From NCBI GenBank assembly GCA_963921275.4, contig OZ001293.3, positions 3,232,001 through 3,296,000 on the forward strand: a DNA stretch of 64,000 bases, read 5' to 3'. This document shows, one piece after another, positions 12,617 to 58,032 of the stretch (its first letter is position 1; every line of letters begins with the position of its first letter). The translations under genes and the position numbers were made by a program. Under the pieces are notes generated by a model that was not told the DNA's origin, did no database searches, and worked only from the letters and a program-made list of their open reading frames with translations. Source of the stretch: an uncultured Hormoscilla sp. GTDB taxonomy: Bacteria > Cyanobacteriota > Cyanobacteriia > Cyanobacteriales > Desertifilaceae.

Positions 12617-14559
12617 ATGTCACGGAATTCAGTCGAAAGACAAGAGTATGAATGGAAGGAGGTGCCCTGGCAAGAGCTGGAGCGCCGAGTCTTTAAGCTA
12701 CAAAAGCGAATTTACAGAGCGGCACAGGAAGGCAACAAGCAGAAAGTTCGCAAGCTCCAGGGACTATTGAACAGGTCATGATCCGCGAAGATGATAGCGG
12801 TTCGTCAGGTAACGCAACAGAACCAAGGGAAAAAGACGGCAGGAGTGGATGGTGTAAAAGCGCTGACCCCAAAGAGTCGTTTGAAACTGGTAAGCCAAAT
12901 CAAAGTCACCAGGAAGGCTAAGGCCAAACCTACGCGGCGCGTATGGATACCAAAGCCAGGAAGGGATGAAAAACGGCCATTAGGAATACCGACGATACAT
13001 GACCGCGCACTTCAGGGATTGGTCAAACAGTCGCTCGAACCCGAATGGGAAGCGTACATGGAGGTTATGCATAAGGACCGGTCGAAGATAGAGAAGGCGC
13101 AAGGAGTGATTGAAAAGTGGTTGAGGGAGATAGGACTAGAGCTAAAAGCCGAGAAAACGAGGATATCCCACACTCTGGAAGGAGAAAACCCAGGATTTGA
13201 TTTCCTAGGGTTTAACATCCGACAATACAGAGTAGGAAAATATCAAAGCGGCAGAAATGGCCACGGAACCCTCCTAGGATTCAAAACCATAATCAAGCCT
13301 AGTGACAAATCCATAAGAAATCATAAAGAGCAACTATTGCAGATAGTACGCCGCCATAAAGGAGCACCACAGGAGGCTGTGATAGCAAAACTGAACCCGG
13401 TAATAAGGGGGTGGAGTAACTATTTCAGAACGGTGGTAAGTAAGGTCACTTACAGCTCTATGGATAAACACTTGTGGGAATTGCTATGGCAATGGGCGAA
13501 GGGAAGGCATCCCAACAAATCGGGTAGATGGATTGCCAGAAAATATTGGGCCCTGACCGGGAGTGACCGGTGGAGGTTCACTGGAAAAACAAAAGGTGGA
13601 GACATCGTAAAACTGGCCCGCTACACTGAAACTGAAATAGTCGGATGGGGTCGAGCCGGGAATCGCTTCCCGACCCTCCCTTGAGGAACCGGACTTGCGA
13701 TTTTCACCGCATCCGGCTACTGGGTACTAGGCCCTTTTCATAGGTAGACTTAATAGGAATTACTTCCGTTAGCCCTTGCCGCCTGTCTTTTCTTCCCTTC
13801 CTGGTTTAGCGAGTGGTTGTTCTGATAACCGTTAGTATCACCATTTTCAAGTCAGTTTTACCAGTTATCCATACCTTATCCTCCACTTGCGTTTCGGATT
13901 AGTTCCGTGGCTTTTTAGGATTACTCATTCCAGCAGCTTCCTAGTATCACCGACCCACGTCAGCGCTGGCTACCCAGCATCATCTACATTACTGTAGATG
14001 TTATCCCAGGAATTACCCCGGGCATTCGCTTCTTGGGCCATCCCTCCCCCCGTGGCTTGCGCTTAACATCTAACTTGTCCTGATGGACAGCACACGAGAG
14101 GTTACTTCGTTCCCTAACAACATTTCGCGATACCTTTAGGTCCACACTATACCCCGGGAGCTATTTGAGTACTATATTAGCCAGAGTCTAAAACTAATAC
14201 TAGCTACCATTTCCTTTTTAGGCCAGCGCATATAGCCTTATTTCGCTGGTTTCTTATAACGGGCTTGCACATGTTTGCCTGCTCTAACCTTGGATATCTT
14301 TCCTAGCGGCGTCACCGGCTTAGGCTGCCAGTTATCCTACATTTGAGTCCTCGCTTAGCACCACGATGATGTCGCTTCGTAGCACCGAGGACCGGTGTCA
14401 CCCCCGTACCTGGGGGGAGGGGAATTTAACCCCCATGCGGTCAGAGTTCCCGGCTAATGAAACCGGGCTAGCGTTCCGTGTTTGACCACGTTAGGCTAGA
14501 ACGAATCGCACAGACACATAAAGGTAAAGGAACAGCAAGCCCGTTCGACGGTAATCTAG
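12617..14559 (+). pseudogene. ltrA: Group II intron RT pseudogene (TGA near 12779, in-frame deletion of the RT core including YADD, antisense intron insertion)
   Basis: EPEWEAYME joined directly to VMHKDR; compare the intact core at 3797-5160. Confidence 0.88.
13643..14511 (-). mobile_element. ORF-less group II intron F, copy 1 (869 nt)
   Basis: 5' GTGCGATTCGTTCTAGCC, DV, 3' CTCGACCCCATCC; flanks rejoin as TEIV|RHIKV. Confidence 0.9.
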
Positions 14560-14616
14560 CAAATGAAACCAGACCAGACTTTCACCGTCACCGGTTTACG
14601 CCTGAACGAATCGCAC
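14560..14616 (-). mobile_element. 5' end of ORF-less intron D (internally deleted); continues at 2922 on +
   Basis: GTGCGATTCGTTCAGGCG start; ends CATTTGCTAG. Confidence 0.7.
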
Positions 14617-15169
14617 CTGCATATCCTATCCATTACAGACAGGCGTTGGCTTCTCCTCGAAATCTTTCCCAGATACAACCTGCCTTCCGGAGAGCAGATG
14701 TTGCGCCTGTGTGGCTACTCAACCTATCGACCGGTGGTTGAGAGTATTTACCTGGTTTACTTCGTTCCTCTAGATGATTGGTCGTAGTTTTAGGTGGACT
14801 CTATATGCCGGGTTTGTTGTCAGTGCTTATTGGTCGAATTACAACCGCCAATGACCTGTATCCTTTCCCTTTTGGGCCAGCGTATCAGCCTTTTCGCTGG
14901 TTTGGTATAACGACACTTATGAGCCTTTGCTTTTGCTCACCATGACTACTTGCTTGACGGTAACCGGTTTAAGCTGCCAGTTATTGCGCCTTTCTCTCCC
15001 GCTTTACGGATTGATGCCATCGCTACCGTCGGAAGAGTGCTGTCACTCCTGCACCTGGAGGGGTGGGCTTTCACCACCATCATCTAAAAGTTGTCAGGGC
15101 TAATGGAACCCTGCTAGTGGTTCCATTTTTTGACATGTGTCAAGTCATTTTACAATAAACGAATCGCAC
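14617..15169 (-). mobile_element. 5' part (DI-DIII) of group II intron B
   Basis: GTGCGATTCGTTT start; colinear with 12012-12570; ends GGATATGCAG, which joins ACGCCCTCAC at 3521. Confidence 0.85.
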
Positions 15170-15411
15170 GGTAATCATCACATAATACATTTATAGTGCA
15201 AAATGTAGGTTAAAAGATAAGGATCTCGGCTTGGTGCCATTGATACTTCCCTGTAGGCACAAACAACGAGTTACAGAACAAGTACAATCCACGATTAATT
15301 TGCTGACTAATATGGAGACTTTACATCCCGATCTGTTGCTTCAGCACAACATTGAACCATCTAGTTACAAGGATGGCTTGGGCGCATCCCACTTATAGTA
15401 AGTATTTATAC

Positions 15412-15585
15412 TTATAGATTAAAACTAAGCTGATTAGAGTTTGGGAATTGACCATTGAGATAGGCGCGCCGACGACCTAGAACTTGAGGTACATTTTCCC
15501 TTCTCAACTGTACCCCAGAAATTTTGACAGGTCGCCCAATCTGTTTAATAGTTGATTCAATAGAACCAGGCCCAATTGAAATTAC
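15412..15585 (-). pseudogene. ISKra4-like transposase C-terminal remnant
   Basis: IGPGSIESTIKQIGRPVKISG..ENVPQVL..AYLNG. Confidence 0.65.
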
Positions 15586-16089
15586 TATGGCTGCGCTACC
15601 CTTCGCCATCGGCATGAAAATAGTAATAATTGACAAGGAGATGGCGATGTTTCTTGAGATAGACAATAAAGTTATCTACCTCTTTATTGTCCCAACCCTC
15701 AAAGAGAGGGATTGCATTTTCTACATCGGGAGAGCATCTCACTTTGGTATTTGCGAATGGCGTAGTATAAATGGTCGGCCTTGGCCTGGGTTTATAATAC
15801 AAAAAGTACAAATAATACGCAATCTATTGAATTACGCGAGTTACTTTGTAGTATAAATGATCGGCCTTGGCTCGGGGGTCTGGTCAAAAGCAGTTGATAG
15901 AGCAGAGAATATATTTGTCGCGCAGATGCCTAGGCAATGTCTCCGGAGTAGTGCGAATAGCGCTCTCCGGAGACATTGAAGGAGAAATTGTCTAGAATAT
16001 TTCGCGTGATTGGCTTGCTTGCTAATTTTTACCCAGTATAACCCAACCGTTTTTGACCGCACCCGGGGTGCGGTCAAAACCAGTTGATA

Positions 16090-16255
16090 AAAACTTTGAG
16101 GCTTTACTACTTCCCAGAAGGGAGAAGTCACTTTGGCCGCCTGCGCTCTCGAAGCCTAGTCCTGAAAAATCGGCATCTCCTCCGCTTCTGGTGGCAGTGA
16201 GAAAGCATCTGGACGGTATCGCCGGTTAAAGCCCGAGGCCATTGCCCTTAGCTGC
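16090..16255 (-). pseudogene. Degenerate partial copy of the 5' part of the methyltransferase at 20077
   Basis: RRYRPDAF..MPIFQD*..KVTSPFWEVVKPQ; 37/38 nt identity to 20290-20327. Confidence 0.7.
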
Positions 16256-16972
16256 ACCTAATTTGAGCGCGATCGCTGGCACCACGACCCAGCACTAAAA
16301 GGACGATCGATCGGTTTTTTCTGGCGAGCAGTTGCAGCTTGCGCCTCCCCTATGATATGCTGCTATACTCGCAATAGTTGGATTATGTTGATCGGAACTA
16401 CGGAAGCAGCGGCTCTTTTAAGCATTTCCGCCCAAAGAGTCAGGCTGCTATTAAAGCAGGGTGTGGTCAAAAGTAATTGATAGAGTAGAGGAGAAAAGCT
16501 GTCCCCTTGGGTCAATTATGATAATCATTATCATTCTCTTTTACCAAGGAGAACTTTGGTTCACAGCATGTAAGCAGGTGGGCGTAAATCAACTGGCCTC
16601 TGTTAAGAAATGTCTTATCGCGCCCATCTACTTCTGGAAGAGGCTTGAGCGCCAACTTAACAAAACTTTACTGTCGTTGAGTTGACTTATGCACAGCTAC
16701 TTATCAATAGTATATAATGTGGTTTTGTGGGATTTTTTTGTAATATCTGTACAAGCATTCTGGGCAATTTATAACCTATAAGTTGCTCTGCACGTGGCGA
16801 ATGCGCTCGTGGGGCTCCGGACGACTGCATGGCGACTACCCCTGGAGCTGCACTGGCCCTTACTGCGCTGGGATCTTCTGTACTCTTAAATAATCACACT
16901 CCAGCAGCATATTTCAAGCCAAGTCGTAGTCTTGAAGCAGTCAAACTTCTTAACAGGAAGATATGGTTATTA

Positions 16973-18260
16973 CTACCCTGGTATTTTTGCTCGGAGGGTC
17001 TCAAGTTGCCAAAAATCCGACCAGCAATTATTAGCTTGTAGAATGAGTAGCCCTAACATCGGATTAATATTATCAGGATGCCAAGTCGCCCCGGGAATCT
17101 TTAACCTTTTTTGGGGTATATAGCGATGAGCACTTTCAATTTCTCCTGAACCGATGGGTAAACCTAAGGAGAGCAACCGGTGATAATTAATACAATCAGA
17201 AAAGCCTTGCAGATACTTACACAAACGAGATAAACGCTCTTGACCTTTTGCGGTGAGCAATGCCTTCCTGCTTCCGAGACATTCTGGAAAATTTGTCAAC
17301 AGTTGCTGTACTTTCCCTGCATCAATTTTCGATAGTTCTTCATTTACCAAATCTTGTTTTTCGCTTCCCTCCAGCCCCAGAGCTAGCGCGACGGCGTCGC
17401 GGCGTATCAGCGGTTTCATAAAGATGTTGTTTGAGATGACAACGCTCCAGGATAAATTGCAAGTTGTTAAATTGTAAGTTGTCAAATTGCTCCTGGAGTT
17501 CTGAGGGTAGCCCATTACCACCATCTCCGACTGCATAGACGTGACGCGCGTAGTGACATCCCTTGATCTATTGCTGCACTTACCAATTGATTTACAAGGA
17601 TAGGATACTTGCTCATTTATGCTAGAAAATTGCGCTTTTCTTTGTTTTGAACTGGACTTTTCTTACCAACTCTGACTTCTCGCCACTAGTTCGCTCTTTT
17701 TTCGGCAGTTGCCGTTTTTTTGTTAACTGCTGGGTTTGAGCTGATTGGAAAATGCCAGTACTCAGATGACTACCATCAAGTTCCACCAAAATTTGATCAA
17801 CTCTAGGTCTGACATCGAGGGGTTTATCATATTCTGCTCTTGAACGTTCTAGTCGTTGGGAAACATACTCCTCTGCCTGGGGAGCAATTTTGACTACCGC
17901 TCTTCTAAGGAGATAAGGATCAATACTCCACCCATAGTGTTGTTCAAATTGTTTAGCTGCTTGTTGATAAGATTGACTGATTCCCAAAGATACCAATCGC
18001 GCATCGCGTAGCGTGGCGCAGCTATAGCTTTTATCTTAGCTGGAGAACGACATCGGTAATGCCTAATTGGTTTTTGACTGCAGGAGTCCCCTGGGAAAGT
18101 CTTGCGGTTCCATAAATAGGGTGATTCTACCTCTATCGGACCAAAAAGCACTCCATATTTTATTCGTATTTGACGGTGAACCTGATATCCTTTTTCCAAG
18201 TCATCTGTTGTCAGTTGAGAACTTAAGTAGCTCAAAATCATCGACATTAGTTGCCGATTA
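16973..18260 (-). mobile_element. ISKra4-family transposase pseudogene (fragmented)
   Basis: LFGPIEVESPY, LVELDGSH, GLPIGSGEIESAHRYIPQKRLK. Confidence 0.75.
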
Positions 18261-18499
18261 AGCGTAATAGCTTGAAAATTTCTCCTCTGAACGGATCTGT
18301 ACCTTATTCGTGCTCAGAAGATTCTCGGGAGCGAATGGTATTAAACAACGATTGACAAACTTCCGTATTGGACATCTGTATAACGTCAGTTCGATAGTTG
18401 TCAGTTGTTAGTTGTCAGTACTATATCCTGTAGCATGTGCTCTTGTTGCAAACAGCAAAAATACGGCTCTTCTCAATTTAGTATGCTAAATTGATGCTA

Positions 18500-19184: not shown

Positions 19185-19594
19185 AATCTTCTAGAATTGT
19201 TTGCGGAGAATCCGGAGATACTACAATTAATAATTCCCCATCGTCTTAATCCAGCAACCTAAGGAGCATGTCCCCAAACTGAACGTTTTTGTTCTAATAT
19301 CATTGATTCTTTAGCTTTTAAGTTGCGGAACAGAGTTTGAGCTGCTACCAGTTCTCCTTGATTATTAGTAACTTGGTCTGTTTTACGAATTCTAATTCTA
19401 AATAAATTTTATTCTTTAACAAAAAATTAAACCATTCTTTTCTAACAAATTCTCTATCTCCAGCTAAGTAATCAATCCGTTCCAAAAATATTCAAAAAAC
19501 CATTATACTTTTTCGTTCTTCAGTATTGCCTTTTTTGTTTAATAAAGAAAATTGAAAATTCTCTTCCATTATTAGCAATAAATTGTTTGTATTT

Positions 19595-20012: not shown

Positions 20013-20076
20013 GATAGAGTGATGGCGAAATATACATCAAGTCAAGGTAAATTGTAGATGAGGAGATTTAAGTTAG

Positions 20077-23391: not shown

Positions 23392-23590
23392 GTTATTCCA
23401 GCTTTTTACAAATGCTGCACTGGCAATTCAGCACCCTATTGCCTGTTTAACAACACCCGACAGAGCTTAGAGCTAGCCACGCACCCCAAGGTGTCATGAC
23501 TGGAATAACGCTTACATTCACGGTGAGCTTGACCGACCTGATTAGCCTTGAACAGATTTAACTGTCTTTAGCTAGGGTTTGTGGTTGGTC
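23392..23590 (-). ncRNA. omegaRNA/HEARO-like scaffold without an adjacent IscB/IsrB ORF, probably 3'-truncated
   Basis: GACCAACC..GGTCGGTC 5' hairpin; GCGTTATTCCAGTCATGACACCTTGGGGTGCGTGGCTAGCTCTAAGCTCTGTC; GTTAAACAG..CAGTG..AAAAAGCTGGAATAAC, with GTTATTCCAG/CTGGAATAAC pairing. Confidence 0.65.
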
Positions 23591-29487: not shown

Positions 29488-29552
29488 AGCCCCACCCTAA
29501 AGCCCCACCCTAAAGGGTGGGGCTACATGAACGAAGCCCGCCTGCGCGGGCT
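29488..29552. repeat. REP-like element (AGCCCGC..GCGGGCT family); relatives at about 7741-7773 and 62341-62395
   Basis: GCCCCACCCTAAAGGGTGGGGC followed by AGCCCGCCTGCGCGGGCT. Confidence 0.65.
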
Positions 29553-30010
29553 ATTCTGGGATTCCTAGGATTTCGCTAGTTGTAAAGATTTGTGACATTT
29601 ATCCATTGGTTCGATCGGGCTTCCCTGTGATTCCCATGATTTCACTAATTGTAAAGATTTGTAACAATTACTGGTTCCCTGGGAATGCCTGAAAACGATC
29701 GCCCCTTGACGGAAAAGTGGCGATCGCCTATTATGAAAGATAGTACCTGTTAGATTGGTTATGGCATCAAAGACTTGGCATCAGTTAATCAAACAAGCCC
29801 AGACGCTGACCTATGACGAACAGCAGCGTCTAGCGGCACATTTGGATAAGATGATTCACCAGCAAGATCCATTTTGCAAGGGTCCGAATGAACAATCCAG
29901 TCAAGCTGCTGACTAGATTATAATCTTTTGGGAATCTCCTGCGGACAGTAGTAACTTAAATTGATTAGATATGTTGCCATCATAGGAAGTCTTACAGAAC
30001 GTTCCTAAAA

Positions 30011-30340: not shown

Positions 30341-32138
<1,798 letters not shown>

Positions 32139-42419: not shown

Positions 42420-42422
42420 TCA

Positions 42423-43146
42423 ATGACAAATCTGGATAATTTGACTATCCATAGTTTCCGGAGACTGCAAGAGATCGACTTGCAGTCCTTGGGGCAAATA
42501 AACCTGTTTGTTGGAGTCAACAACTCCGGCAAAAGCAGCGTAGGCGATATCAACATACTGTCGTCCCTTAGACTCCCTAGCATGGCTAAATACCGCATCG
42601 AGAAATTAAGTCATCTCGCAAACCCCAGTTGGAAGCCCTCAAGTGGCTGTTTCCCCAGAATAGCACAGTCGGGGAATTCTATCAGGGAGAAATCCAGATC
42701 TCAGGGGATGGTAAATTTAGGGTAAGGGAGTTGATGATTTAGAAACAGCCATTCATACCTGAGTACTTAAACCTGCATTATCGTGGCTAGTTCAAGCCTG
42801 TCAGCAGATGGACGTACAGCTATTTGCAACAACTCACAGTTTGGAAACCGTAGACGAACTATTGGACGCTTCTGAAGCAATAGCAGATTTAGTTCTCTAT
42901 CGGTTATATCCAGGGCAAGCGCAAGAAAAATTTTGCATGTGGTATGGACCCACGAAAATTGCGAGTGGACTGTGCCCTATTCGCACTTCTTGAAGGCAAT
43001 CATTCTCATGATAGTTGATAATAGATGCCCCAAGCATGATTCTGGCGCTTACCCTGCGGTTATATTCACGGGAGTCGCGGACGAAATTGATCCGAAACGA
43101 TTGGAAACGGCTGTGGGAAGATGTAGGTATGGAGGTGCGCTGGTGA
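42423..43146 (+). pseudogene. Decayed copy 1 of the AAA/ABC ATPase
   Basis: Same N-terminus (GVNNSGKSS) and C-terminal pieces (VQLFATTHSLE) as 43294-44454, with deletions and frameshifts. Confidence 0.8.
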
Positions 43147-43293
43147 GGTATGCTATTAGAGTGGAATTGTTTGCTGGCATTGGCGGGTTGCGATCTAGCA
43201 TGGCATCTGCTAACATAGAATGGGCGAATGATATCAGTTAACTTGGCTGTCGAGTTTATGAAAGTAATTTTTGTCAAGGGGCGATCGTCTTCA

Positions 43294-44454
43294 ATGAAAA
43301 ATCTGGAAAATTTAACTATCCATAGTTTCCGGGGGCTGCCAGAGATCTGCTTGGAGTCCTTGGGGCAAATAAACCTGTTTGTCGGAGTCAACAACTCCGG
43401 CAAAACCAGCGTGTTAGAGGCGATATCAACATACTGTCGCCCATTAGACCCGCTAGCATGGCTAAATACGGCATGGCGTCGAGAGATCAAGTCATCTCGC
43501 AAACCCCAGTTGGAAGCCCTCAAGTGGCTGTTTCCCCAGAATGGTACAGTCGGGGAGTTTTATCAGGGAGAAACCCATATCTCTGGGGATGGCAAATTTA
43601 CGGTGAGGGAGTCCCGATCGATCTATCAAGAGTTTGAAGAAATTTGGGCAGATCCCGATCGCAGCATTGGTCGGGCGTTCCCATCAGCGGGGAATTTAGC
43701 TTACGACATCGAGGAGGTAAATTTAGGTCCTGCTACTGTTGTGCGGGGTGCAGAAGTACAGTTGAAAGCTACAATAGAGAAAGAAGAAAAGTTGCCCGAT
43801 CTGGAAATATCGGAAAGCTTCGTAATATGGGAGAATAGGAGTTTCGTCAAGCGGCGCCAACCTGGGACTGGGGAAGGAAAATCAGAGATTATGCTGTCGG
43901 TTGATGCGGTGACACCATTTGCTCACGCGATCGAACAGTTACAAGTAGAATTGCTATCAGAAGCGACTTTAGCGGGATTCAAGCCAGAAGTCATCAAATT
44001 ACTCCAGGTAATGGATAAAGAAATCGATGACTTACAAATATTATCGCATCGCGGGGATAGTCCGAGGCTCTATGTTAGCCACAAACAGACAGGAATGGGG
44101 CCATTAAGTGCTTGCGGAGAGGGAGTTTGTCGTCTGCTGTCCATCGCCTTAACTTTGGCCAAAGTGCGAGGAGGAGTTCTACTGATTGATGATTTAGAAA
44201 CTGCGATTCATACTGAAGTGCTCAAACCCTCATTTTCCTGGCTGGTTCAATGGTGTCAGCAGATGGACGTGCAGCTATTTGCAACAACTCACAGCTTGGA
44301 AACCGTTGACGAACTCTTGAGTGCTTCTAAGATAGCACCAGATTTGGTGCTATATCGATTATATCCACGGGAGTCGCGGACTAAATGGCTGAGAATAGAT
44401 CGCGATCGACTGCAACGAGTGCGGCAAGATTTGGGTATGGAGGTGCGCTGGTGA
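43294..44454 (+). CDS. AAA_15/AAA_21-type ABC ATPase (copy 2, intact)
   Basis: Walker A GVNNSGKT, Walker B LLIDDLETAIH, H-loop ATTHS. Confidence 0.88.
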   Translation: MKNLENLTIHSFRGLPEICLESLGQINLFVGVNNSGKTSVLEAISTYCRPLDPLAWLNTAWRREIKSSRKPQLEALKWLFPQNGTVGEFYQGETHISGDGKFTVRESRSIYQEFEEIWADPDRSIGRAFPSAGNLAYDIEEVNLGPATVVRGAEVQLKATIEKEEKLPDLEISESFVIWENRSFVKRRQPGTGEGKSEIMLSVDAVTPFAHAIEQLQVELLSEATLAGFKPEVIKLLQVMDKEIDDLQILSHRGDSPRLYVSHKQTGMGPLSACGEGVCRLLSIALTLAKVRGGVLLIDDLETAIHTEVLKPSFSWLVQWCQQMDVQLFATTHSLETVDELLSASKIAPDLVLYRLYPRESRTKWLRIDRDRLQRVRQDLGMEVRW

Positions 44455-45227
44455 GGTATGCTATCATTGGGGTTGAGGGACCGCAAGACCAAGCATTTGT
44501 TGGCAAGGTACTCAAGCAGCTACTGGGTTTCAAAGATTTTAGAAAGGAGTTGGGAGGATTAGAGGATAATTTGGACAAGTTCTGGCGCAAGTTTAAACCA
44601 AATTATCCCAAAGACGGAAATTTGTACAAGCGTCTGGATATGCCATCGATCCTGTATAATGATTCAGTTTCGGTGGCCATATATCCAGGAGAGGGGAGTA
44701 ACTTAGTGAATAGTTTGGATGAGTTTATCCGAAATAATCCTCCTTATCAAGAAGAACTGATGGCATTTGGGATTGTAGCAGATGCCGATCGGAAAGCGCC
44801 AGATGCGGTTGTGAAACCCTACTGTAATTGCTTTCGCAGCTATTTCCCTAATTTTCCTGACCTTGCTGGGGTGGTCGATACCAGCGTTCCTCGCACGGGA
44901 ATATACGTGTTCCCCGATAATGTTAACCCGGGAGTGTTGGATACTTTGCTATGTCTTTGTGGAGAAGTTGCTTATCCCGAGTACCTGGAAAGGGCCCAAG
45001 AGTATCTTGACAAGTTCTCGCCAGAGGAGAGAAAATCTCTGAAGTGGAAACCGTTCGATCGGGAAAAGGCCCTAGTTGCTACCGTGGTCAGCGTGCTGAA
45101 ACCGGGGAAAACCAATACCGTGAGTATAGCAGATAATAATTGGGTGAGTGGGCAAACGGAAACTGAGGTGACGGCGCTAGCTAATTTCAGAGATTTTTTG
45201 AGGGAACTTGTGAGTGTGGATGGATGA
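44451..45227 (+). CDS. DUF3226-like TOPRIM-fold protein (copy 2, intact)
   Basis: GVEGPQD and GIVADAD motifs; VFPDN..G.L; GTGA overlap with the ATPase. Confidence 0.7.
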   Translation: MRYAIIGVEGPQDQAFVGKVLKQLLGFKDFRKELGGLEDNLDKFWRKFKPNYPKDGNLYKRLDMPSILYNDSVSVAIYPGEGSNLVNSLDEFIRNNPPYQEELMAFGIVADADRKAPDAVVKPYCNCFRSYFPNFPDLAGVVDTSVPRTGIYVFPDNVNPGVLDTLLCLCGEVAYPEYLERAQEYLDKFSPEERKSLKWKPFDREKALVATVVSVLKPGKTNTVSIADNNWVSGQTETEVTALANFRDFLRELVSVDG

Positions 45228-45375
45228 AAAAGGATAAACTAAAAGCTGTGGAATTGTTTGCTGGTATTGGCGGGTTTCGCCTATGGCATCTGCTAACATA
45301 GAATGGGCGAATGATATCAGGACACTTTGCTGTCAAGTTGATGAAAGTAATTTTGGGAAAGGGGCGATCGTCTTA
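45224..45375 (+). pseudogene. 5' fragment of the 48133 C5-MTase (another at about 43160-43292)
   Basis: MKKDKLKAVELFAGIGGFR, near-identical DNA to 48133-48290. Confidence 0.8.
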
Positions 45376-45376
45376 A

Positions 45377-47367
45377 ATGAAAAATCTGGAAAATTTAACT
45401 ATCCATAGTTTCCGGGGGCTGCCAGAGATCTGCTTGGAGTCCTTGGGGCAAATAAACCTGTTTGTGGGAGTCAACAACTCCGGCAAAACCAGCGTGTTAG
45501 AGGCGATATCAACTTACTGTCGTCCTTTGGATGGGGTCGAGCCGGGAATCGCTTCCCGACCCTCCCTTGAGGAACCGGACTTGCGATTTTCACCGCATCC
45601 GGCTACTGGGTACTAGGCCCTTTTCATAGGTAGACTTAATAGGAATTACTTCCGTTAGCCCTTGCCGCCTGTCTTTTCTTCCCTTTCCTGGTTTAGCGAG
45701 TGGTTGTTCTGATAACCGTTAGTATCACCATTTTCAAGTCAGTTTTACCAGTTATCCATACCTTATCCTCCACTTGCGTTTCGGATTAGTTCCGTGGCTT
45801 TTTAGGATTACTCATTCCAGCAGCTTCCTAGTATCACCGACCCACGTCAGCGCTGGCTACCCAGCATCATCTACATTACTGTAGATGTTATCCCAGGAAT
45901 TACCCCGGGCATTCGCTTCTTGGGCCATCCCTCCCCCCGTGGCTTGCGCTTAACATCTAACTTGTCCTGATGGACAGCACACGAGAGGTTACTTCGTTCC
46001 CTAACAACATTTCGCGATACCTTTAGGTCCACACTATACCCCGGGAGCTATTTGAGTACTATATTAGCCAGAGTCTAAAACTAATACTAGCTACCATTTC
46101 CTTTTTAGGCCAGCGCATATAGCCTTATTTCGCTGGTTCCTTATAACGAGGCTTGCACATGTTTGCCTGCTCTAACCTTGGATATCTTTCCTAGCGGCGT
46201 CACCGGCTTAGGCTGCCAGTTATCCTACATTTGAGTCCTCGCTTAGCACCACGATGATGTCGCTTCGTAGCACCGAGGACCGGTGTCACCCCCGTCCCCC
46301 GTACCTGGGGGGAGGGGAATTTAACCCCCATGCGGTCAGAGTTCCCGGCTAATGAAACCGGGCTAGCGTTCCGTGTTTGACCACGTTAGGCTAGAACGAA
46401 TCGCACAGACCCCCTAGGGTGGCTAAATACGGCATGGCGTCGAGAGATAAAGTCATCTCGCAAACCCCAGTTGGAAGCCCTCAAGTGGCTGTTTCCTCAG
46501 AATAGTACAGTCCCCGTCGGGGAGTTTTATCAGGGAGAAACCCATATCTCAGGGAATGGCAGATTTCCGGTGAGGAAGTCGAAAGCGATCTACCGAGAGT
46601 TTGAAGGAACAAAGCCATACCCTGATAAAATTGAGGATGACATTGAATACGAGGAAACGCAAACTGTTAGAGGTGCAGAATTAGAGCTAAACGTTGTCCA
46701 ACTCAGTTCAGATTATTTGCCATATAAGCATGAGGAATTATCGACAAATTTTCAAATTTGGGAAAATGAGCGTTTTGTTAATCGTGGCAGGCGCTCAAAA
46801 ATAGAGCTGCCAGTCGAGACAGTCACTCCAGTTTCTCACCGCATTGAGAAGTTACAAATGGAATCGTTATCAAAAGCGACTTTCCATGAGTTAAAGCAAG
46901 ATATCATCAAATTACTCCAAGTAATGGACGAGGGAATTATCGACTTAGATGTTCTATACGATACTGGAGGTACTCCGAGACTTTATCTCAAGCACAAACA
47001 GATAGGGCGATCGCCGTTAAGTGCTTTCGGTGATGGTGTCCGTTGTCTGCTGTACATCGCCTCAAGTTTGGTCAAAGTGCGAGGGGGAGTTCTGCTGATT
47101 GACGAACTAGAAACAGCCATTCATACTGAAGTGCTCAAACCCTCATTTTCGTGGCTAGTTCAATGGTGTCAGCAGATGGACGTGCAGCTATTTGCAACAA
47201 CTCACAGCTTAGAAACCGTTGACGAACTCTTGAGTGCTTCTAAGATAGCACCAGATTTGGTGCTATATCGATTATATCCACGGGAGTCGGAGACTAAATT
47301 GCTCAGAATAGATCGCGATCGACTGCAACGGCTGCGGCAAGATGTGGGTATGGAGGTGCGCTGGTGA
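45377..47367 (+). pseudogene. AAA/ABC ATPase copy 3, join(45377..45528,46407..47367), interrupted by an antisense intron
   Basis: CCT TT|A GAC restores CRPLDPL; LLIDELE, ATTHS. Confidence 0.85.
45529..46406 (-). mobile_element. ORF-less group II intron F, copy 2 (878 nt, 7-nt internal duplication)
   Basis: Near-identical to 13643-14511 and 56762-57632. Confidence 0.92.
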
Positions 47368-48143
47368 GGTATGCTATCATTGGGGTTGAGGGACCGCAAG
47401 ACCAAGCATTTGTTGGCAAGGTACTCAAGCAGCTACTGGGTTTCAAAGATTTTAGAAAGGAGTTGAGAGGATTAGAGGATAATTTGGACAAGTTCTGGCG
47501 CAAGTTTAAACCCAACTATCCCAAAGACGGAGATTTGTACAAGCGTCTAGACATGCCATCGATCCTGTATAATGATTCTGTTTCGGTGGCAATCTACGCA
47601 GGAGAGGGGAGTAACTTAGTGACTAATTTGGAGAGCATTATCTCCGCTCATACTCCCTATCAAAAAAAACTGATGGCATTTGGGATTGTAGCAGATGCCG
47701 ATCGCAAAGCGCCAGATGCGGTTGTGGAACCCTACTGTAATTGCTTTCGCAACTACTTTCCTAATTTTCCAGATCGGGCTGGGGCGATCGATACCAGCGT
47801 TCCTCGGACGGGAATTTACGTGTTCCCCGATAATGTTAAACCGGGAGTGTTGGAGACTTTGCTATGTCTTTGTGGGGAAGTTGCTTATCCCGATTACCTG
47901 GAAAGGGCCTAAGAGTATCTTGAGAAGTTATCGCCAGAGGAGAGAAAATCTCTGAAGTGGAAACCGTTCGATCGGGAAAAGGCTTTAGTTGCTACTGTGG
48001 TCAGCGTGTTGAAACCGGGGAAAACCAATACCGCGAGTATAGCAGATAATAATTGGGTGAGTGGGCAAACGGAAACTGAGGTGACGGCGCTAGCTAATTT
48101 CAGAGAGTTTTTGAGAGAACTTGTGAGTTTTGATGAAGGATAA
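47364..48143 (+). pseudogene. DUF3226-like TOPRIM protein copy 3 with a premature stop
   Basis: CAA in copy 2 is TAA at 47910-47912; frame continues to 48143. Confidence 0.8.
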
Positions 48144-49284
48144 ACTAAAAGCTGTGGAATTGTTTGCTGGGATTGGCGGGTTTCGCCTGGGCATGGCAGC
48201 TGCTAACATAGAAACGGTATGGGCGAACGATCTCAGTACAGTTTGCTGTCGAGTTTATGAAAGTAATTTTGGTCAAGAGGCGATCGTCTTAGGGGATATT
48301 AGCAAAATCAATCCTGAAGAGATCCCCGAACACGACATTTTGACAGCGGGTTTTCCTTGCCAACCCTTCAGTCCGGCGGGTAAGAAACAAGGGGTGCGAG
48401 ATCTACGCGGAACGCTTTTCCAGCGCATTGTGGAAATTCTCCAGGTCAAACAACCGCAATATTTTTTGCTCGAAAATGTGAAAAGAATTCTGACAATGGA
48501 AAAGGGTCATCACTTCCGAGTAATTTTATCGGCATTGGTGGAGTTAAACTACGCGATCGAATGGCGGATCGTTAATCCGATAATATTGGGAATTCCCCAA
48601 AGTAGAGAAAGAGTTTTTATTATGGGAACGAAATGCGATCGGTTGAGTCCAATACCCGACTTAGAAAGATTATCAGTATTTTTGACCGATAATGATGGGG
48701 ATAGTTTAGGAAATTGGGAAAATGGTCTGTTGCCAATTAGGGAGGTAAGCAGTAAGAACTATAACTGGGGTATTGCTTACAATAATCAGATGTATACTCA
48801 GCAGTTACCACCATTGCCTGACATCAAACCCAGAAAGAAACTGAAGGATATTCTCCAATATGATTCCGAACTCGGTACCCAGTTTGATTTTACTGCGGAC
48901 ACGATCGATCGCATCAAGCAGAGTCAAGCAGTAAATCGCTATTGCAATGGGGTGGAAATATTATATAATCAGAAAGGAGGGGCGCGTTTGGGATATACTA
49001 TATTTGGGATTAACGGTGTGGCATCGACCTTAACGGCATCAACATCAAGGCATTACGAACGGTATCGGGTAGGCGATCGCTTTCGCCGGTTAACGCATGT
49101 CGAGTATGCCCGTTTAATGGGATTTCCTGATGACTGGTGCCGGGTGGCGAGAGTCTACGATCGATATGCCTTATTTGGGAATGCGGTAGTGCCAGCTTGT
49201 GTAGAGTGGATCTGCAAAAGAATTGGCCAGCAAAATTTTGAATTAAAGCATCCACAATGGCAACAACTGACTTTAGCAATTTAA
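48133..49284 (+). CDS. DNA (cytosine-5) methyltransferase
   Basis: ELFAGIGG, GFPCQPFS, LENVK, QSRER, ARLMGFP, GNAV. Confidence 0.93.
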   Translation: MKDKLKAVELFAGIGGFRLGMAAANIETVWANDLSTVCCRVYESNFGQEAIVLGDISKINPEEIPEHDILTAGFPCQPFSPAGKKQGVRDLRGTLFQRIVEILQVKQPQYFLLENVKRILTMEKGHHFRVILSALVELNYAIEWRIVNPIILGIPQSRERVFIMGTKCDRLSPIPDLERLSVFLTDNDGDSLGNWENGLLPIREVSSKNYNWGIAYNNQMYTQQLPPLPDIKPRKKLKDILQYDSELGTQFDFTADTIDRIKQSQAVNRYCNGVEILYNQKGGARLGYTIFGINGVASTLTASTSRHYERYRVGDRFRRLTHVEYARLMGFPDDWCRVARVYDRYALFGNAVVPACVEWICKRIGQQNFELKHPQWQQLTLAI

Positions 49285-49302
49285 AATAGAGAGTCGCAGA
49301 AG

Positions 49303-50797
<1,495 letters not shown>

Positions 50798-51142: not shown

Positions 51143-53815
51143 TTACTCATCCTCTATCTCCTCATTCTCCATTAACAAGACATACTCCTCAATTTGCTTT
51201 GCCAAGTGAAGAGGTAAGGGAAGTTTGAGTGCTTCGTCATATTGGAGTGCAATATGTCGCAGTTTATGTGTCAGCGCTGCCCAGGGAAATACCTCATCTC
51301 TAGGTTGAAGACAGGCAACAGTTATTTCAAATAAACCAGGATTCCAGTAATATTTATGAGGTGATTTATTCTCTCCTGCTTTCGATTGATTAGGGCTGAG
51401 ATCCCTAAACTTCTTCGACTTTTGGTAAGTGCTAGCAAACACTCGATCGCCCATTTGAAAAACGCCCTCGGCAAACCCCTGTTGATTCCGATCCGGTTTT
51501 TGGGCATACCACTCTGGTGTTTCGTTACTCTGACTATCGCGAAGGCGCAAGATCCGAAGTCCTTTCAGGCGATTAATGTTGAGTGACCTTCCGTTGTTGC
51601 CAAAAGCCACAGTTTCGGTTGATATCTGTCCGTTGTTCAGCCAGGACCAAGTGCTTCGCAGGTTCTGAGCATGGCAGAGCAAGAGAGTGTCTCCCAGTGG
51701 CAAAACGTCACCCTTCAGTTTCTGCTCGATGAAGGACATAGCTTGTCCTTTACGATCGACTCCTTCTCGGGCAATTTTCAGCAGCGCCTCTCGATAAGGC
51801 AGCCAACTATCAAAACCAGGCGCGATCGCCTTTATTTCCGTGGTGTCCGATGCCATGTAAACCATCACTGGCACTCGCTGAGTAGTGCCATCTGCACTGG
51901 TTGGCGCATTCTGTTTAATTAACCACAAACCAACGTAGTTGAGCCGTTCTGGCAATTTGAGCTGCTTAGTATTTTTCTTTCTATCTTCTGTAAGAACTAT
52001 CTTTGGAGGCCCGACCTGTACTCCCATCTGACGCAGAAGATCGAGGAATCCAGTGATGGAACTATGGGACAGATTGGGATTATCAACGCTCATAAATTGC
52101 GTTATGCGTCCGGCGATGGCAAATCCCCGCCTGAGAGCGTTGTAGGGATCGCGATCGCTCTTAAAATTCTCCTTGCCTGCGATTTCGATCAAGGCTACAG
52201 TTACAGATGATGCTTGGGGAACTTTTTCTGCTATTTCTTTACCGCGCTGAATAATTGCCTGTTGTCGTCTGTCCCTTCTATTTCCCATATCGGAGTTAAG
52301 TTGCAACTCATCACCAAGAGCACCCAATGGCTGCGCCTGTATATTCAGGGTAAATTCCAGGTCGGGAAATTTGTAGGGAAATGAGGCGGATGCTGGAATT
52401 CCCAGACAATGACTGACAGATTTTATCAAAGTATCGCGTGTTGTCTCCCGTTGATACCAGATTTCTATTGTTAGGCGGCGATCGCTGACTGCTTCACTTA
52501 TGCTGACTGCTTCACTTATAGCGCCGCTAAGGACAGATTGAGTTTGTTGCAGCGTCTCCATCTTGGCTTCTGCTAGTTCTTCACCATCTTTTGCAGGTCT
52601 CGGCAACTCTGGAGATTGCGGGATAGAAGCAACATGAAACTTAACCCTCTGAGGCATTTCTACGAATTCCCACTCTGGTGCTATCAGGTTTGCTATCTGT
52701 TCGGCAAGCAGGCGACGGTCTGCTGGTGAAAAACCGGCATCAACCCGATGATCGGGTTTTATGCCATTTCGGAAAACCACCGCTTCGTTAGGACTGCCAT
52801 TCAGGTTTAGTGCTGAGGTCGGATATGCCACGATCTCCTCGGGAGTAGGAAAGGGCTGTTGAAGGTTCAACCTGTCTAATAAGGGTACTAAATTGCTGCC
52901 CCAATTTAGGCGGTACTGCGACTTATTTTGTTGCTGTTCCGATGCTGACAAGCGCTTCCATCCGATCGGCGCTACTTGAAAACTGTTTGAATTGTGCAGT
53001 TCCTCAAGCCAAGGAACTTTAGTGAGTAGATAAACACTGGTTTCTTCGCCACCAGGAATACTACTTTTTGGCTGACTAACCCAGCGCCGCAGACTCAGGT
53101 CGCAGTGGAGTACCGGGAAACTTTGGAAAGGCACTGTCTGAAGAGTAAAAGTAATCACAACAGACCAGTACCAACTGCTACGCTTGTCAGCATAATCGAG
53201 TGGCGGCCAAGAGACCAGTTCAGCCCCCTTGCTGCCAATAGGCAGCGGTGCGCGTCGAAAGCGGAGAAGATCCGAACCAAATTCAATCGATATGTTGTCT
53301 TGACTCAACTTGGCTGCCAAAACGTGGGGCAGCAAGATAAAGTTATTATTGCCTCTCAGTTCTGCCGTGCCGTTAGCTGCTGTCGTCCAGGTCCCTACAT
53401 TCACTGTCGTTGCTTCCCACTGCAAATCCTCTTTTGGCAGCTTTTTCAGCAAAGCGGTAATTTGCTTCTCAGAAGCCTTCCCATCAAATTGCGTTCTTAC
53501 CCAAGCATTGAAAATTAAATACAGCGCCTGTATATTGATAGGCATTGCACTGTACAGCCAAGGTTGCACCTTACTTTTAGCGGCGTTAGGAGTAATGTAG
53601 ATCAGGTCTGGCACCAGTGCCCGGAGGGCTTTGTTCAGCGAACTTATCGGCACGTTAGTTTTATCTACGGGACGGCGCGTAATCTCTGCCTGTAAATTCC
53701 TTAGCTCTGATTTCCATTTTTCAGGAAACTTGAGAATCTGAAAAGTCTGCGGTTTCAGAGGTTTGCCCTCTGGCAGACGAAAGGAAAGAGTCCGTAATTG
53801 GTCATAGATCGGCAT
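51143..53815 (-). CDS. pPIWI-RE module PIWI-like protein (pPIWI_RE_X, MID, RNase H-like)
   Basis: ISSLNKALRALVPDL, TLQTVP, LRRW, GRITQF, LRLR..ETPEW, LPLPLHLAK; last gene of a REase-helicase operon. Confidence 0.85.
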   Translation of the reverse strand: MPIYDQLRTLSFRLPEGKPLKPQTFQILKFPEKWKSELRNLQAEITRRPVDKTNVPISSLNKALRALVPDLIYITPNAAKSKVQPWLYSAMPINIQALYLIFNAWVRTQFDGKASEKQITALLKKLPKEDLQWEATTVNVGTWTTAANGTAELRGNNNFILLPHVLAAKLSQDNISIEFGSDLLRFRRAPLPIGSKGAELVSWPPLDYADKRSSWYWSVVITFTLQTVPFQSFPVLHCDLSLRRWVSQPKSSIPGGEETSVYLLTKVPWLEELHNSNSFQVAPIGWKRLSASEQQQNKSQYRLNWGSNLVPLLDRLNLQQPFPTPEEIVAYPTSALNLNGSPNEAVVFRNGIKPDHRVDAGFSPADRRLLAEQIANLIAPEWEFVEMPQRVKFHVASIPQSPELPRPAKDGEELAEAKMETLQQTQSVLSGAISEAVSISEAVSDRRLTIEIWYQRETTRDTLIKSVSHCLGIPASASFPYKFPDLEFTLNIQAQPLGALGDELQLNSDMGNRRDRRQQAIIQRGKEIAEKVPQASSVTVALIEIAGKENFKSDRDPYNALRRGFAIAGRITQFMSVDNPNLSHSSITGFLDLLRQMGVQVGPPKIVLTEDRKKNTKQLKLPERLNYVGLWLIKQNAPTSADGTTQRVPVMVYMASDTTEIKAIAPGFDSWLPYREALLKIAREGVDRKGQAMSFIEQKLKGDVLPLGDTLLLCHAQNLRSTWSWLNNGQISTETVAFGNNGRSLNINRLKGLRILRLRDSQSNETPEWYAQKPDRNQQGFAEGVFQMGDRVFASTYQKSKKFRDLSPNQSKAGENKSPHKYYWNPGLFEITVACLQPRDEVFPWAALTHKLRHIALQYDEALKLPLPLHLAKQIEEYVLLMENEEIEDE

Positions 53816-56800
53816 TTATGCCTCCTATCTTTTCAATAGCTGTATAAAATGGTCCATAGAGTGCCTGCACCAGTTCCCGTTCTCGGGGCGCGATTTCCCT
53901 CTCAGAATCGGTGGCAAAATAAGGACGCAACACTTCTTTGATGCTGACTAACAGACTGGTTATTGGTTCGTCGCCTATATCGTCATTGAATGCAGTGCGC
54001 CGAGCAAAAGCAGCATCGCAGAAAAAGACTTCCGCTTGACAGCCACCCCTTATCAGACGCCAGATCGCCTGCCAGATGGAAACCAACTGATTCCATGTTA
54101 CAGCTTCTCGATCGTTTTCGCGCAGACTGCTGTAAATCATTGGCAAACTCATGAGATGACGCCAGCGAACGTAAGCCTCTTTACGGAATGTATTCCCAAC
54201 TCGATCGAGTGTTAGCAAACCATCCTGCTGTATATCCTGGGTAGTGCTAGTGCTAATATCGCTCTGTTGGGATACAGCACATTGAGCGGTCAGCCATTCG
54301 GTGTCGGCGTAATGTTCGATCGCCCAACGATTGATAGAATGAAGGGCATAGCTGATATCATCGGGACGGGGATGGGGACGCACGAGAAAATAAGCCGCGC
54401 CAATGGCAGCTTTATCCTCATCATTGAGAATATTATGTCCGCGCTCGATCGCCATCAAGGGTGCAATCAAAATCCAAGCACCCGTCTTGTCAAACTGATG
54501 TACGAGTCCCCGTTGTATCCCTCGCTCTCCAGTTCCCCCCTTACTCCATTGCGTACCAAACTCATCATCATCGCGAACCAGACGCAGAACTTGTCCGCGC
54601 CACTCAGATCGAATGTTTTCCAGATGTGTTTGGGCCAGTTTCGCCTGATCGTAACTACCTACAAGCAATAGAATGCGCTGACGCCCAACTTCTAGTTCAT
54701 CTCGTTTTCGCTCTAGTCTACTCGGACCGCCTAAACCGCCTGGTTTTGCCAATTGATTGAGCAGTTCTTTGAGTGCCCCTTCTCGGTCGTGGCTGCCAGA
54801 AACAGTAATTGGTTTGTTCTCTCGATCGTAAAATGGACTGAATTCAAAGTAGCTTTCTTGAATTGCCTGTAATTCTTCCTCGGGCGATCGCAGCACTCCC
54901 GCCACTGGTACCTGTACGTGATATCCCGGTGCTTTTCCTGCCCAACTTGTTCCTGAAAGCAACAAGACTGATGGTCCGGCAATGCCATCGCTGGCAAATA
55001 GTTCGTGCAGGTGCAGTAAGAACCAGCGTCCCACACCCATGCACTTGAAAAACCGCAAATCTCCCGGTCCGCTGTCGCTGGAACTGACATATTGGAAAGC
55101 TAGCACGTTACCCATCGGAGCCACGGGAATCACTCCTTCATAGTCTCTGGGCGGACTGTAGAATAACATCGAACTTTGCTCTTGTAACTTCAGAGGCTCT
55201 TCCACATGTTTCCAGTCCCGCAACATCCGGTAAAGTCGGTTTTGCAGCACTGCCACTAAGAGGGCAAATGGAGTTTGCACTATAGCATGTTCTCGTCGTT
55301 CTTCTGTCAAGGTGACATCAGGCTCTTTATTCTCATCGATCCATTCACCCAGGCGCAGGCGCAGCAGATCATCATCTATAACCGCGATCGCGAGCCGAGT
55401 CAGTTCGCACAGAGGGTTGTTGCTGCGATCGCCGAGGGGATCTCCGATGTAATTATTAAATTCTTCCATCAGTCGGCGATAGCCTTGATGCTTGTCGCGT
55501 GTCTTCTCGCGAGCGCCAGAAAGAGCGATCGCCAACTTGTCTAGAATTAGCCAGTCTGTAAAGTATTCTCTCCGATCGATCCACTCCCTGAGCGCTGGTT
55601 GTGGTTGACTCAGGATGAGGGCATAGATGCGACTCGTTGCCGTCTGCACCATGTCATGGGCTTTGCACCAGCGATCGACATCCGGATCGACCAATTGTCC
55701 GCGTCCCCCTTGATTTAGCTGCTGCACCACTGGTTGCTGAACTTGACTAAACCATCCATCCCCTTTCTGACCGAATAGCTTTTCCCCGGGACTGAACAAA
55801 CTGTCGAGTTGCACTTGCACTTGGTCGGCTTCATCAACAATGACCAAGTCGCTGCGACGATACACTAACTCGGAAAAACGAATGCTTTCCTGGTTTATTT
55901 GTGGCGCGACGCGACTGTAAACTAAGCTAGCTGGCGTAGCAATCCAAATTTTGGCATCCACTAAGTCCCGCTGTACCTGATGAAACGGGCAAGCACTATA
56001 GAGAGGACAAGCATAGGTTTTACTTGTATCTGGTTGTTCTTGTTCTTCATCATCTGATTCACTGGTGGGAGAGAGTGCCAGACAAGGCTGTTTGCCCGTT
56101 AAGAAAGGTTTTGCCACATCCCGACGCAGTTCGCTTAAAGGACAAGCGGTACTCAGCCACCGGAAACCGACGTGTTCTTGATTGAATTTTTCTAAGGGAT
56201 GTTCGGCATTCCAGGCACGGTGCAAGCGGTTAGTATGGCGATCGCGGTTGGATGCACCCAACATGGGAGCAACGGAGATCCCTAAGCGATCGAATAGTCG
56301 AGCGCGGTTCAGGGCCGAGATCACGTCTCCGACGACGATCGTTACGTGGAGTTCCTGTTTAGCAGCCCAAACTGCCAAGATATCCATTAAAGTTGATTTC
56401 CCTGAAGACACCATCCCGATCAGGTGCATCAACCCATTAAATGTTAGCTTCTCAGCACGAGTGAGGGTGTCATCGGAACCAAACAGGTCTAGGCGTACCC
56501 TGGATAGACGTTCTTTCCAGTTACCGTCAGACTGAGTATCCATCCACCGAGCAGTCTCCAGCAAATCTTCCCAAGTAACAGTAATTGTCTGTCTTTGATT
56601 AATCCCCGTCAAGTCGTGACCAGACGGTGGCGGAAATACCAACTCCTCAGCCAGATCGACAGTGACTCGATATTTGCCATCGCTACACTCGTACTTACCA
56701 GCAGTAGCCCATTTAACCGAGTTTTTCCGATGGGGTAGAGGTTCTTCAAGAGTCTTCCCGTGGATGGGGTCGAGCCGGGAATCGCTTCCCGACCCTCCCT

Positions 56801-58032
56801 TGAGGAACCGGACTTGCGATTTTCACCGCATCCGGCTACTGGGTACTAGGCCCTTTTCATAGGTAGACTTAATAGGAATTACTTCCGTTAGCCCTTGCCG
56901 CCTGTCTTTTCTTCCCTTTCCTGGTTTAGCGAGTGGTTGTTCTGATAACCGTTAGTATCACCATTTTCAAGTCAGTTTTACCAGTTATCCATACCTTATC
57001 CTCCACTTGCGTTTCGGATTAGTTCCGTGGCTTTTTAGGATTACTCATTCCAGCAGCTTCCTAGTATCACCGACCCACGTCAGCGCTGGCTACCCAGCAT
57101 CATCTACATTACTGTAGATGTTATCCCAGGAATTACCCCGGGCATTCGCTTCTTGGGCCATCCCTCCCCCCGTGGCTTGCGCTTAACATCTAACTTGTCC
57201 TGATGGACAGCACACGAGAGGTTACTTCGTTCCCTAACAACATTTCGCGATACCTTTAGGTCCACACTATACCCCGGGAGCTATTTGAGTACTATATTAG
57301 CCAGAGTCTAAAACTAATACTAGCTACCATTTCCTTTTTAGGCCAGCGCATATAGCCTTATTTCGCTGGTTCCTTATAACGAGGCTTGCACATGTTTGCC
57401 TGCTCTAACCTTGGATATCTTTCCTAGCGGCGTCACCGGCTTAGGCTGCCAGTTATCCTACATTTGAGTCCTCGCTTAGCACCACGATGATGTCGCTTCG
57501 TAGCACCGAGGACCGGTGTCACCCCCGTACCTGGGGGGAGGGGAATTTAACCCCCATGCGGTCAGAGTTCCCGGCTAATGAAACCGGGCTAGCGTTCCGT
57601 GTTTGACCACGTTAGGCTAGAACGAATCGCACCGACTCGATCGCGGTTAGAACAAATGCTGACTTCCCGGGACGAAAACGGTTCTAGGTTCTCGTCTACA
57701 TTGAAACCTCGCAGAATCTCGTCTACTTGGCGATAGCGCTGCAACGATCGCTCCCAATTGTATTTGCTTCTAAATTGGGTGAGAATATGGCGGGCATTAC
57801 CTAGCATCCGATGTTGTTTTTCACTCCAGTTTGCTGCTGACGCCACGGGAAACGGATAGCCCGTCAGCAACACCCATAGGGCAATGGCCGGGGCATCCGA
57901 GTCCAACTGAGACAAGAGATAAAGCCCCAACTCAATATCACAAAATGTGGAAAAATTCAAATCCGTTGCTGTTTGCTTCAGGCGATCGCGTATTGCTTTC
58001 AGTTTCTCTCGCCATTTACTTGTATCGCGCAT
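53802..58032 (-). CDS. pPIWI-RE DinG-like SF2 helicase (pPIWI_RE_Z), join complement(57633..58032,53802..56761), 1119 aa
   Basis: MRDTSKW start, GMVSSGKST, VDEAD, Cys cluster, LSGTSW, ERGHNILN; junction GTC G|AC GGG is open into the 946-aa ORF. Confidence 0.85.
56762..57632 (-). mobile_element. ORF-less group II intron F, copy 3 (871 nt), sense to the helicase
   Basis: Near-identical to the other F copies. Confidence 0.92.

Follow-up and report, generated by a model that had tools for sequence, protein, structure and literature searches.

Two related ORF-less group II intron families on a Hormoscilla chromosome, probably spread by a reverse transcriptase encoded elsewhere

Dai and Zimmerly are said to have found, in 2003, that nested group II introns of Methanosarcina home into related intron open reading frames (ORFs). 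In the cyanobacterium Thermosynechococcus elongatus, TeI3 introns, which lack an ORF, are driven by the intron-encoded proteins of TeI4 (Mohr, Ghanem and Lambowitz 2010, PMC2882425), and the portion of that paper used here describes ORF-less introns that outnumber the introns bearing a reverse transcriptase (RT), rely on them and occupy sites with good pairing between exon-binding sites (EBS) and intron-binding sites (IBS). In Trichodesmium erythraeum, according to the excerpts of PMC4649490 drawn on here, 10 of the 17 spliced introns are ORF-less and depend on maturases acting in trans; the same excerpts give GUGCGAUUC as the 5′ consensus of subgroup IIB2, along with an EBS2 that lacks a stem. 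Some cyanobacteria are recorded as having over 100 group II introns (PMC8919778, in part). A literature search found no paper joining Hormoscilla with "group II intron" or "intron". Here we describe two intron families, F and G, in 64,000 nt of DNA from an uncultured Hormoscilla sp. (Cyanobacteriota; Desertifilaceae; GCA_963921275.4, contig OZ001293.3, positions 3,232,001-3,296,000, forward strand). This whole stretch, hereafter the window, is part of a cyanobacterial chromosome, with housekeeping genes that include pheT, aspS, mgtE and cbiD/J. F and G are most probably two related ORF-less families of IIB2 type that have no protein of their own and were spread by an RT/maturase from elsewhere on the chromosome.

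Copies of F and G start GTGCGATTCGTTCTAG and end four nucleotides past CTCGACCCC. The preliminary description of this DNA had listed F three times, with about three single-base changes and a 7-nt duplication among the copies, and G twice without a difference. Comparison of the copies bore this out: F1 departs from F2 by the 7-nt duplication and no substitution, F0 departs from F2 by one substitution and two 1-nt deletions, and G0 is identical to G1 across 835 nt. Identity between the two families is about 73%. One correction is due, in that the G-to-A change of F0 lies inside EBS2, so that not all differences among the F copies are neutral. The 5′ end GUGCGAUUC is present in all copies, with a GTGCG start (GUGYG in the RNA consensus) in five out of five, and the 26-nt 5′ end has five matches in the window against 0.00 expected from shuffles. 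Similarity breaks sharply at both intron ends, the flanks are unrelated and their comparison revealed no target-site duplication at any of the five copies. Thus the targets are unrelated and not duplicated, as had been stated, and the exact boundaries without duplication agree with the insertion by reverse splicing proposed at that time. Neither family contains an ORF, no open segment exceeding 58 aa in F2 or 68 aa in G0, and no Pfam RT match falls inside them, in keeping with their earlier designation as non-autonomous.

Relatives in other genomes were available from at least three loci (L001, L002 and L003), the matches listed being all from Hormoscilla metagenome-assembled genomes (MAGs). 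The closest among the matches listed are about 91% identical and belong to two such MAGs, and the flanks of at least three of the loci do not match those of the window. L002 was rejected as a full element, as it is only a 5′ intron fragment with neither domain V (DV) nor RT. A 91% identical ortholog of the F2 host gene (P0122, 1117 aa) is continuous and without intron. Because near-identical copies occupy unrelated hosts and this ortholog is uninterrupted, a recent spread of F and G is supported at the sequence level, and the "recent burst" of the preliminary description stands.

Rfam places group II DV and domain VI (DVI) at eight positions in the window, five of which are the F and G copies. 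RF00029 matches all five, with scores of 44.4-46.6 bits where the gathering score is 40, and DV retains AGC. Five family representatives (F2 and G0, intron E of the window and two relatives from Hormoscilla), aligned and folded with RNAalifold, gave a consensus fold of 221 pairs, 82 of them with compensatory changes, and a covariation term of -27.5 kcal/mol; the lineage has hence evolved under structural constraint. The IIB2 5′ consensus is present as GTGCGATTC in both families, and EBS2 lies in a single-stranded stretch 3 nt past a helix, that is, without a stem. Judged by 5′ consensus and stem-less EBS2, F and G are group II introns of the cyanobacterial IIB2 subgroup (chloroplast-like, CL2-type).

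All five copies lie inside ORFs, F2, G0 and G1 in sense and F0 and F1 in antisense orientation, and removal of the element restores the host in four of them: the DinG/Z-domain ORF (F2), a restriction endonuclease (G1), a leucine-rich-repeat frame (G0) and the RT ORF of intron P (F0). Once the 871 nt of F2 are removed, Z domain and DinG helicase adjoin with no gap, Pfam Z positions 4-111 being in exon 1 and 116-167 in exon 2, and the PADLOC PprDinG profile being matched at positions 11-95 and 109-924. On profile PDLC03454, exon 1 of the G1 host covers positions 1-161 and exon 2 (50624-50794) covers 163-217; the gene adjoins its Dcm methylase (48130-49284). In the leucine-rich-repeat gene, removal of 835 nt restores the repeat ...ELG-N-LSNL..., and a GACT end of the intron is required for the exons to join (165 aa + N + 216 aa). 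Removal of the 869 nt of F0 yields ...TETEIV followed in frame by RHIKVK. Nesting of F0 in the short intron Y was considered and rejected, since tblastn with intact RTs identified both flanks as the RT ORF of P. The F1 host, on the plus strand, is a PDC-M38A gene (AbiLi-like AAA ATPase) whose partner is PDC-M38B/DUF3226; this host also has an upstream stop. At the junction it follows its paralog (43228-44454) codon for codon only when the insert is taken to include the two bases that come after CAT. An open frame of 360 aa that spans the F1 junction had been considered as proof of the ends placed by Rfam, and was discarded because the paralog alignment indicated that it is open by chance.

Group II introns usually end in AY, 7-8 nt past the branch A, and the Rfam consensus has the same form. 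In F and G, reconstruction of the host genes places the 3′ end 4 nt past CTCGACCCC and 9 nt past the predicted branch A, at the very coordinates used in the preliminary description. The ends placed by Rfam (...CCCCAU for F and ...CCCCGAC for G) were rejected, since the host frames then fail. The last four nucleotides are ATCC in F, GACT in G, GACC in introns E and H of the window and in the inner intron of L001, and AGCC in L003 and in the outer intron of L001. For this outer intron the frame holds only if the extended 3′ end is used, and the inner one fits an empty site in L003 exactly. The agreement among the host reconstructions argues that the mobile unit ends four nucleotides past CTCGACCCC.

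EBS2 was assigned to the hypervariable stretch of 5 nt between a conserved cgUUA and the hairpin that comes next. This position agrees with the IIB rule, which in the excerpt of PMC8643678 consulted calls for three nucleotides between helix and EBS2, the middle one being EBS2a. Full complementarity (5/5) between EBS2 and exon positions -13 to -9 was found in 7 of 12 elements (G0, G1, L003, the inner intron of L001, L002, E and P), which validates the assignment. The EBS1-like loops reported earlier were all found, AGACUC in F with 5′ exons ending GTGTCT, GGGTCT and GAGTCG, UGCACU in G with exons ending TGGGCA and AGCGTA, and CACGU in E with an exon ending ATGTG. Counting only Watson-Crick pairs over the 11 positions (EBS2, 5 nt, plus EBS1, 6 nt), F0, F1, G0 and G1 have 9 matches each and F2 has 7. 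Of the 127,968 sites that the two strands of the window offer, at least 9/11 is reached by F at only 8 and by G at only 9, and each family occupies two of its own top sites. Scoring of the same sites with the EBS of the other family gave only 2-4 matches. Thus, the targeting of F and G is specific and only F2 looks ectopic. The "relaxed" or "low" specificity claimed previously had been derived from EBS1 alone and is not sustained once EBS2 is included, since four of the five copies then reach a score that is rare in the window. The own EBS2 of F0, TAAGA, pairs 3/5 with its site, worse than the family consensus; presumably the change is a later mutation. Position +1 is A in four of the five copies.

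At 30972 and 50108, the EBS1 loop of G itself reaches 9/11 on its antisense strand, yet these sites are unoccupied. In a Hormoscilla MAG (L001:3514-4438, minus strand), an ORF-less intron lies antisense in the EBS1 hairpin loop of an F-like intron, whose exon-binding loop is thereby destroyed; this inner intron pairs with the loop site 5/5 by EBS2 and 5/6 by EBS1. Self-targeting of the EBS1 loop was rejected as an explanation, the loop sites of G being empty and the L001 insertion being accounted for by the inner intron's own EBS1 and EBS2.

Table 1. Positions of the introns, interrupted genes and defence island in the window, with the pairing of each F and G copy to its insertion site (G.U counted).
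Feature	Positions	Strand	Description	EBS1-IBS1	EBS2-IBS2
F0	13643-14511	-	ORF-less group II intron, 869 nt; 5′ end at 14511; G-to-A in EBS2, two 1-nt deletions	5/6	4/5
F1	45529-46406	-	878 nt; 5′ end at 46406; 7-nt duplication	6/6, one G.U	4/5
F2	56762-57632	-	871 nt; 5′ end at 57632; family F consensus; EBS1 57309-57304, EBS2 57376-57372	5/6	2/5
G0	30651-31485	+	835 nt; 5′ end at 30651; EBS1 30972-30977, EBS2 30905-30909	4/6	5/5
G1	49787-50621	+	835 nt; 5′ end at 49787; no difference from G0	5/6, one G.U	5/5
F2 host	53802-58032	-	PprDinG helicase with N-terminal Z domain; exon 1 58032-57633, exon 2 56761-53802		
G1 host	49303-50797	+	type II restriction endonuclease; exon 1 49303-49786, exon 2 50622-50797		
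pPIWI-RE island	51143-58858	-	complete, three genes: restriction endonuclease 58451-58858, DinG helicase (split by F2), pPIWI-RE protein 51143-53815		
Intron P	12012-14561	+	RT-bearing, intact 5′ end, dead RT ORF (12617-13642 plus 14512-14561)		
Intron Q	3520-6509	+	RT-bearing, 5′-truncated; RT ORF 3573-5167 plus 6315-6500; DV/DVI 6433-6509		
E	5170-6112	-	ORF-less, ends ...CCCCGACC; antisense in the HNH region of Q; 3′-end lineage as F/G		
H	2920-3520	+	ORF-less, 5′-truncated, ends ...CCCCGACC; sense in Q, immediately upstream of the RT ORF		
X	15169-14617	-	5′ part of a P-like intron; 82% identical to P, inverted; carries Y		
Y	14616-14562	-	55-nt intron 5′ stub in X, at the H-equivalent site		
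R1 and R2	2241-2903	-	tandem 5′-truncated RT-intron 3′ ends; HNH C-terminus plus DV/DVI; end TTAGTTTAAT		

The window contains no intact RT gene, Q and P being dead and R1 and R2 being C-terminal stubs only. Both RT ORFs had been called broken, and the stops, frameshifts, deletion and splits were indeed found. The ORF of P carries a W-to-stop change, a deletion that takes about 125 aa, YADD among them, from the RT domain, a later 1-nt frameshift, F0 and a 3′ truncation; that of Q has a W-to-stop change, a frameshift near 3684 and an HNH domain split by E plus 202 nt. The RT introns of the window end GGCUUAGUUUAAU, their ORF running through DV into DVI. As already noticed, they end differently from the ORF-less introns (GGCTTAGTTTAAT in the RT lineage, CTCGACCCC followed by 4 nt in F, G, E and H), and by this sign the two groups belong to separate lineages. 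In domain IV (DIV), comparison within the window found no similarity of F or G to P or Q. Outside the window, full-length RTs are to be found. The window protein P0121 is on a contig of 6,879,066 bp, and of the RT clusters listed for Q, 15 out of 120 are on a contig of the same size, 6,879,066 bp. Three of these 15, P0003 (591 aa), P0017 (596 aa) and P0018 (588 aa), are full-length, with complete RVT_N, RVT_1, GIIM and HNH domains. Probably, therefore, at least three full-length RT/maturase/HNH proteins are encoded on the same contig as the window, as candidate helpers. Hence the earlier claim that no intact helper is present holds for the window, where all RT ORFs are broken, and probably fails for the genome.

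We propose that the RT/maturase of an ORF-bearing intron elsewhere on the chromosome would bind the F or G transcript, aid its splicing and remain on the excised lariat. The lariat particle would locate DNA that pairs with EBS2 (5 nt) and EBS1 (6 nt); the intron RNA would then reverse-splice into one DNA strand and be copied to DNA. The occurrence of three sense and two antisense copies could be accounted for by DNA pairing that ignores the direction of transcription. Sense copies would be removable from the host mRNA, and antisense copies would disrupt the host gene permanently. Which RT helps, and the continued splicing and mobility of F and G at the present day, we infer.

Several points weigh against a spread of F and G by a helper encoded elsewhere. 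Copies were counted in the window, where few are visible (n = 5). No RT intron with a DIV, DVI or 3′ end of F/G type is present in the window, and blastx against the window RT pieces found no remnants of an RT ORF in F or G, the hits being overlaps with antisense or neighbouring introns. Any cognate helper of F and G would therefore be a candidate only, and in P0003 the HNH motif has DQ instead of DH (Q for the first His). The terminal pair of the introns is CC or CU and not the usual AY. As for the exon contacts, G0 and G1 both mismatch at -4, EBS2a pairs with IBS2a in only two of the five copies, and in the case of EBS3 no alignment column covaries with +1 across the five representatives.

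In a bolder, unlikely account, F, G, E and H would form a long-lived, purely ORF-less lineage whose 3′ splice site has shifted by two nucleotides (CY, 9 nt past the branch A), which has no cognate RT intron left and which hijacks the RT/maturase of another lineage. Sense insertions would then make expression of the restriction enzyme and of the pPIWI-RE helicase helper-dependent, so that both, if this were true, would hinge on the helper maturase. Quite unlikely, in our estimation, is that F and G are immobile relics of RT genes since dead, such as P and Q, with the sense insertions being plain knock-outs. The death of both RT ORFs and the failure to find an RT intron of F/G type in the window are what such a past would leave, as are the mutated EBS2 of F0, with its adjacent deletion, and the 7-nt duplication in domain I of F1. 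However, G0 equals G1, F2 represents the family consensus with an intact DV, full-length RT/maturase proteins are found on the same-size contig, and the three sense hosts keep frames that splicing would restore exactly.

We consider it very unlikely that the copies are old and were kept identical by gene conversion among dispersed copies, with no recent burst. Identity by itself cannot date an insertion, many intron copies and fragments lie close together, and the inverted P/X copies indicate that intron DNA rearranges here; yet the PprDinG ortholog carries no intron, the paralog of the F1 host, 94% identical around the site, is empty, and private changes that conversion would erase (the 7-nt duplication and the three changes of F0) persist. 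That the repeats are assembly or segmental duplications of DNA rather than retroelement insertions can practically be dismissed, since nothing beyond the high copy identity favours it and in every copy the similarity breaks off precisely at GTGCG on one side and four nucleotides past CTCGACCCC on the other, with all flanks different, five different host genes and private indels.

For annotation this means that the PprDinG helicase, the type II restriction enzyme and the leucine-rich-repeat protein, which look broken, are probably intact once spliced, while the PDC-M38A ATPase and the intron RT are true knock-outs by antisense insertion. A preference for defence genes was considered and dropped: three of the five copies lie in such genes, but these make up about one quarter of the window, and a rough binomial estimate of about 0.1 is not significant. 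The pPIWI-RE island also includes a 117-aa ORF of no known family (58033-58386). Around the F1 host, three tandem, diverged PDC-M38A plus PDC-M38B (DUF3226) modules occupy 42420-47912 on the plus strand; the middle one (43228-45227) alone looks intact, the first being a 100-aa stub and the third holding F1. Short 5′ fragments of a Dcm methylase gene are repeated beside these modules.

Among the other introns of the window, a recurrent intron-in-intron site (...ggatangcng/acgccc) was noted at 3520 and 14616/14617, occupied by H in Q and by Y in X and empty in P. In P-type introns it lies immediately upstream of the RT ORF, and it resembles the twintron site of T. elongatus. The segments P 12012-12567 (plus strand) and X 15169-14617 (minus strand) face each other and both lack their 3′ parts, an arrangement that suggests rearrangement between intron copies. 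Between the 5′ end of E and the resumed HNH ORF of Q are 202 unassigned nt (6113-6314) with no match elsewhere in the window or the loci; because of this stretch, E does not qualify as a simple insertion into Q. The GC-rich palindrome GCGTAGCGTGCGCGCAGCGC, a word of 20 nt, occurs five times (3049, 5622, 36393, 36909 and 38298) against 0.01 expected, two of the occurrences being small insertions in H and E relative to F and G.

Features unrelated to the introns include a partial match to HEARO (IscB-type omega RNA) by pheT, at 23392-23510 on the minus strand, which covers model positions 77-191 of 211 with 77.8 bits against a gathering score of 83. At 59308-59517, a 21-nt unit repeated about 10 times (...AATAAACTTATTTT...) forms an AT-rich array, which is followed by an 80-nt direct repeat (60071-60216). 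Two CRISPR-DR28 matches, at 29530-29553 (plus strand) and 62340-62363 (minus strand), score 35.7 and 36.6 bits against a gathering score of 35 and have no surrounding array; they are probably dispersed repeats.

F and G offer a clean natural case of the multiplication of group II introns that lack a protein, in which five before-and-after junctions fix the mobile unit to a non-AY 3′ end. With 15 of the 120 listed RT clusters on one contig, the genome appears rich in such introns and should be useful for the study of helper and parasite.

As is reported for Methanosarcina, ORF-less and RT-bearing introns enter the ORFs of other group II introns and form nests; the Methanosarcina hosts are archaeal, whereas here F0 and E are antisense to the RT ORF that they interrupt, so that no spliceable twintron results. 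With T. elongatus, as portrayed in the portion of PMC2882425 used here, the window shares many near-identical ORF-less IIB introns on a cyanobacterial chromosome and an intron-in-intron arrangement (here H in Q and Y in X) whose conserved site is immediately upstream of the RT ORF. In that portion, the introns of T. elongatus that lack an ORF are plain ORF-deletion derivatives of the RT-bearing ones, with visible remnants; few of their copies lie in genes, and they belong to IIB1. F and G carry the IIB2 5′ consensus, have no such remnants in the window and lie in ORFs in five cases out of five, two of them antisense. With Trichodesmium, in the excerpts of PMC4649490, F and G have in common a filamentous-cyanobacterial IIB2 type with the GUGCGAUUC start and stem-less EBS2, and ORF-less introns placed in sense in protein-coding genes with the maturase encoded elsewhere. 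Splicing in Trichodesmium is documented by RNA, whereas F and G are known here from DNA; conversely, the multi-copy near-identical families and the antisense insertions set the window apart from Trichodesmium as those excerpts present it. Trans-mobilised ORF-less introns are thus already known, and the present case differs in degree, in that no cognate RT intron is visible, the 3′ end is not AY and all five copies lie in ORFs, two of them as antisense knock-outs. F and G match the precedents of Thermosynechococcus and Trichodesmium.

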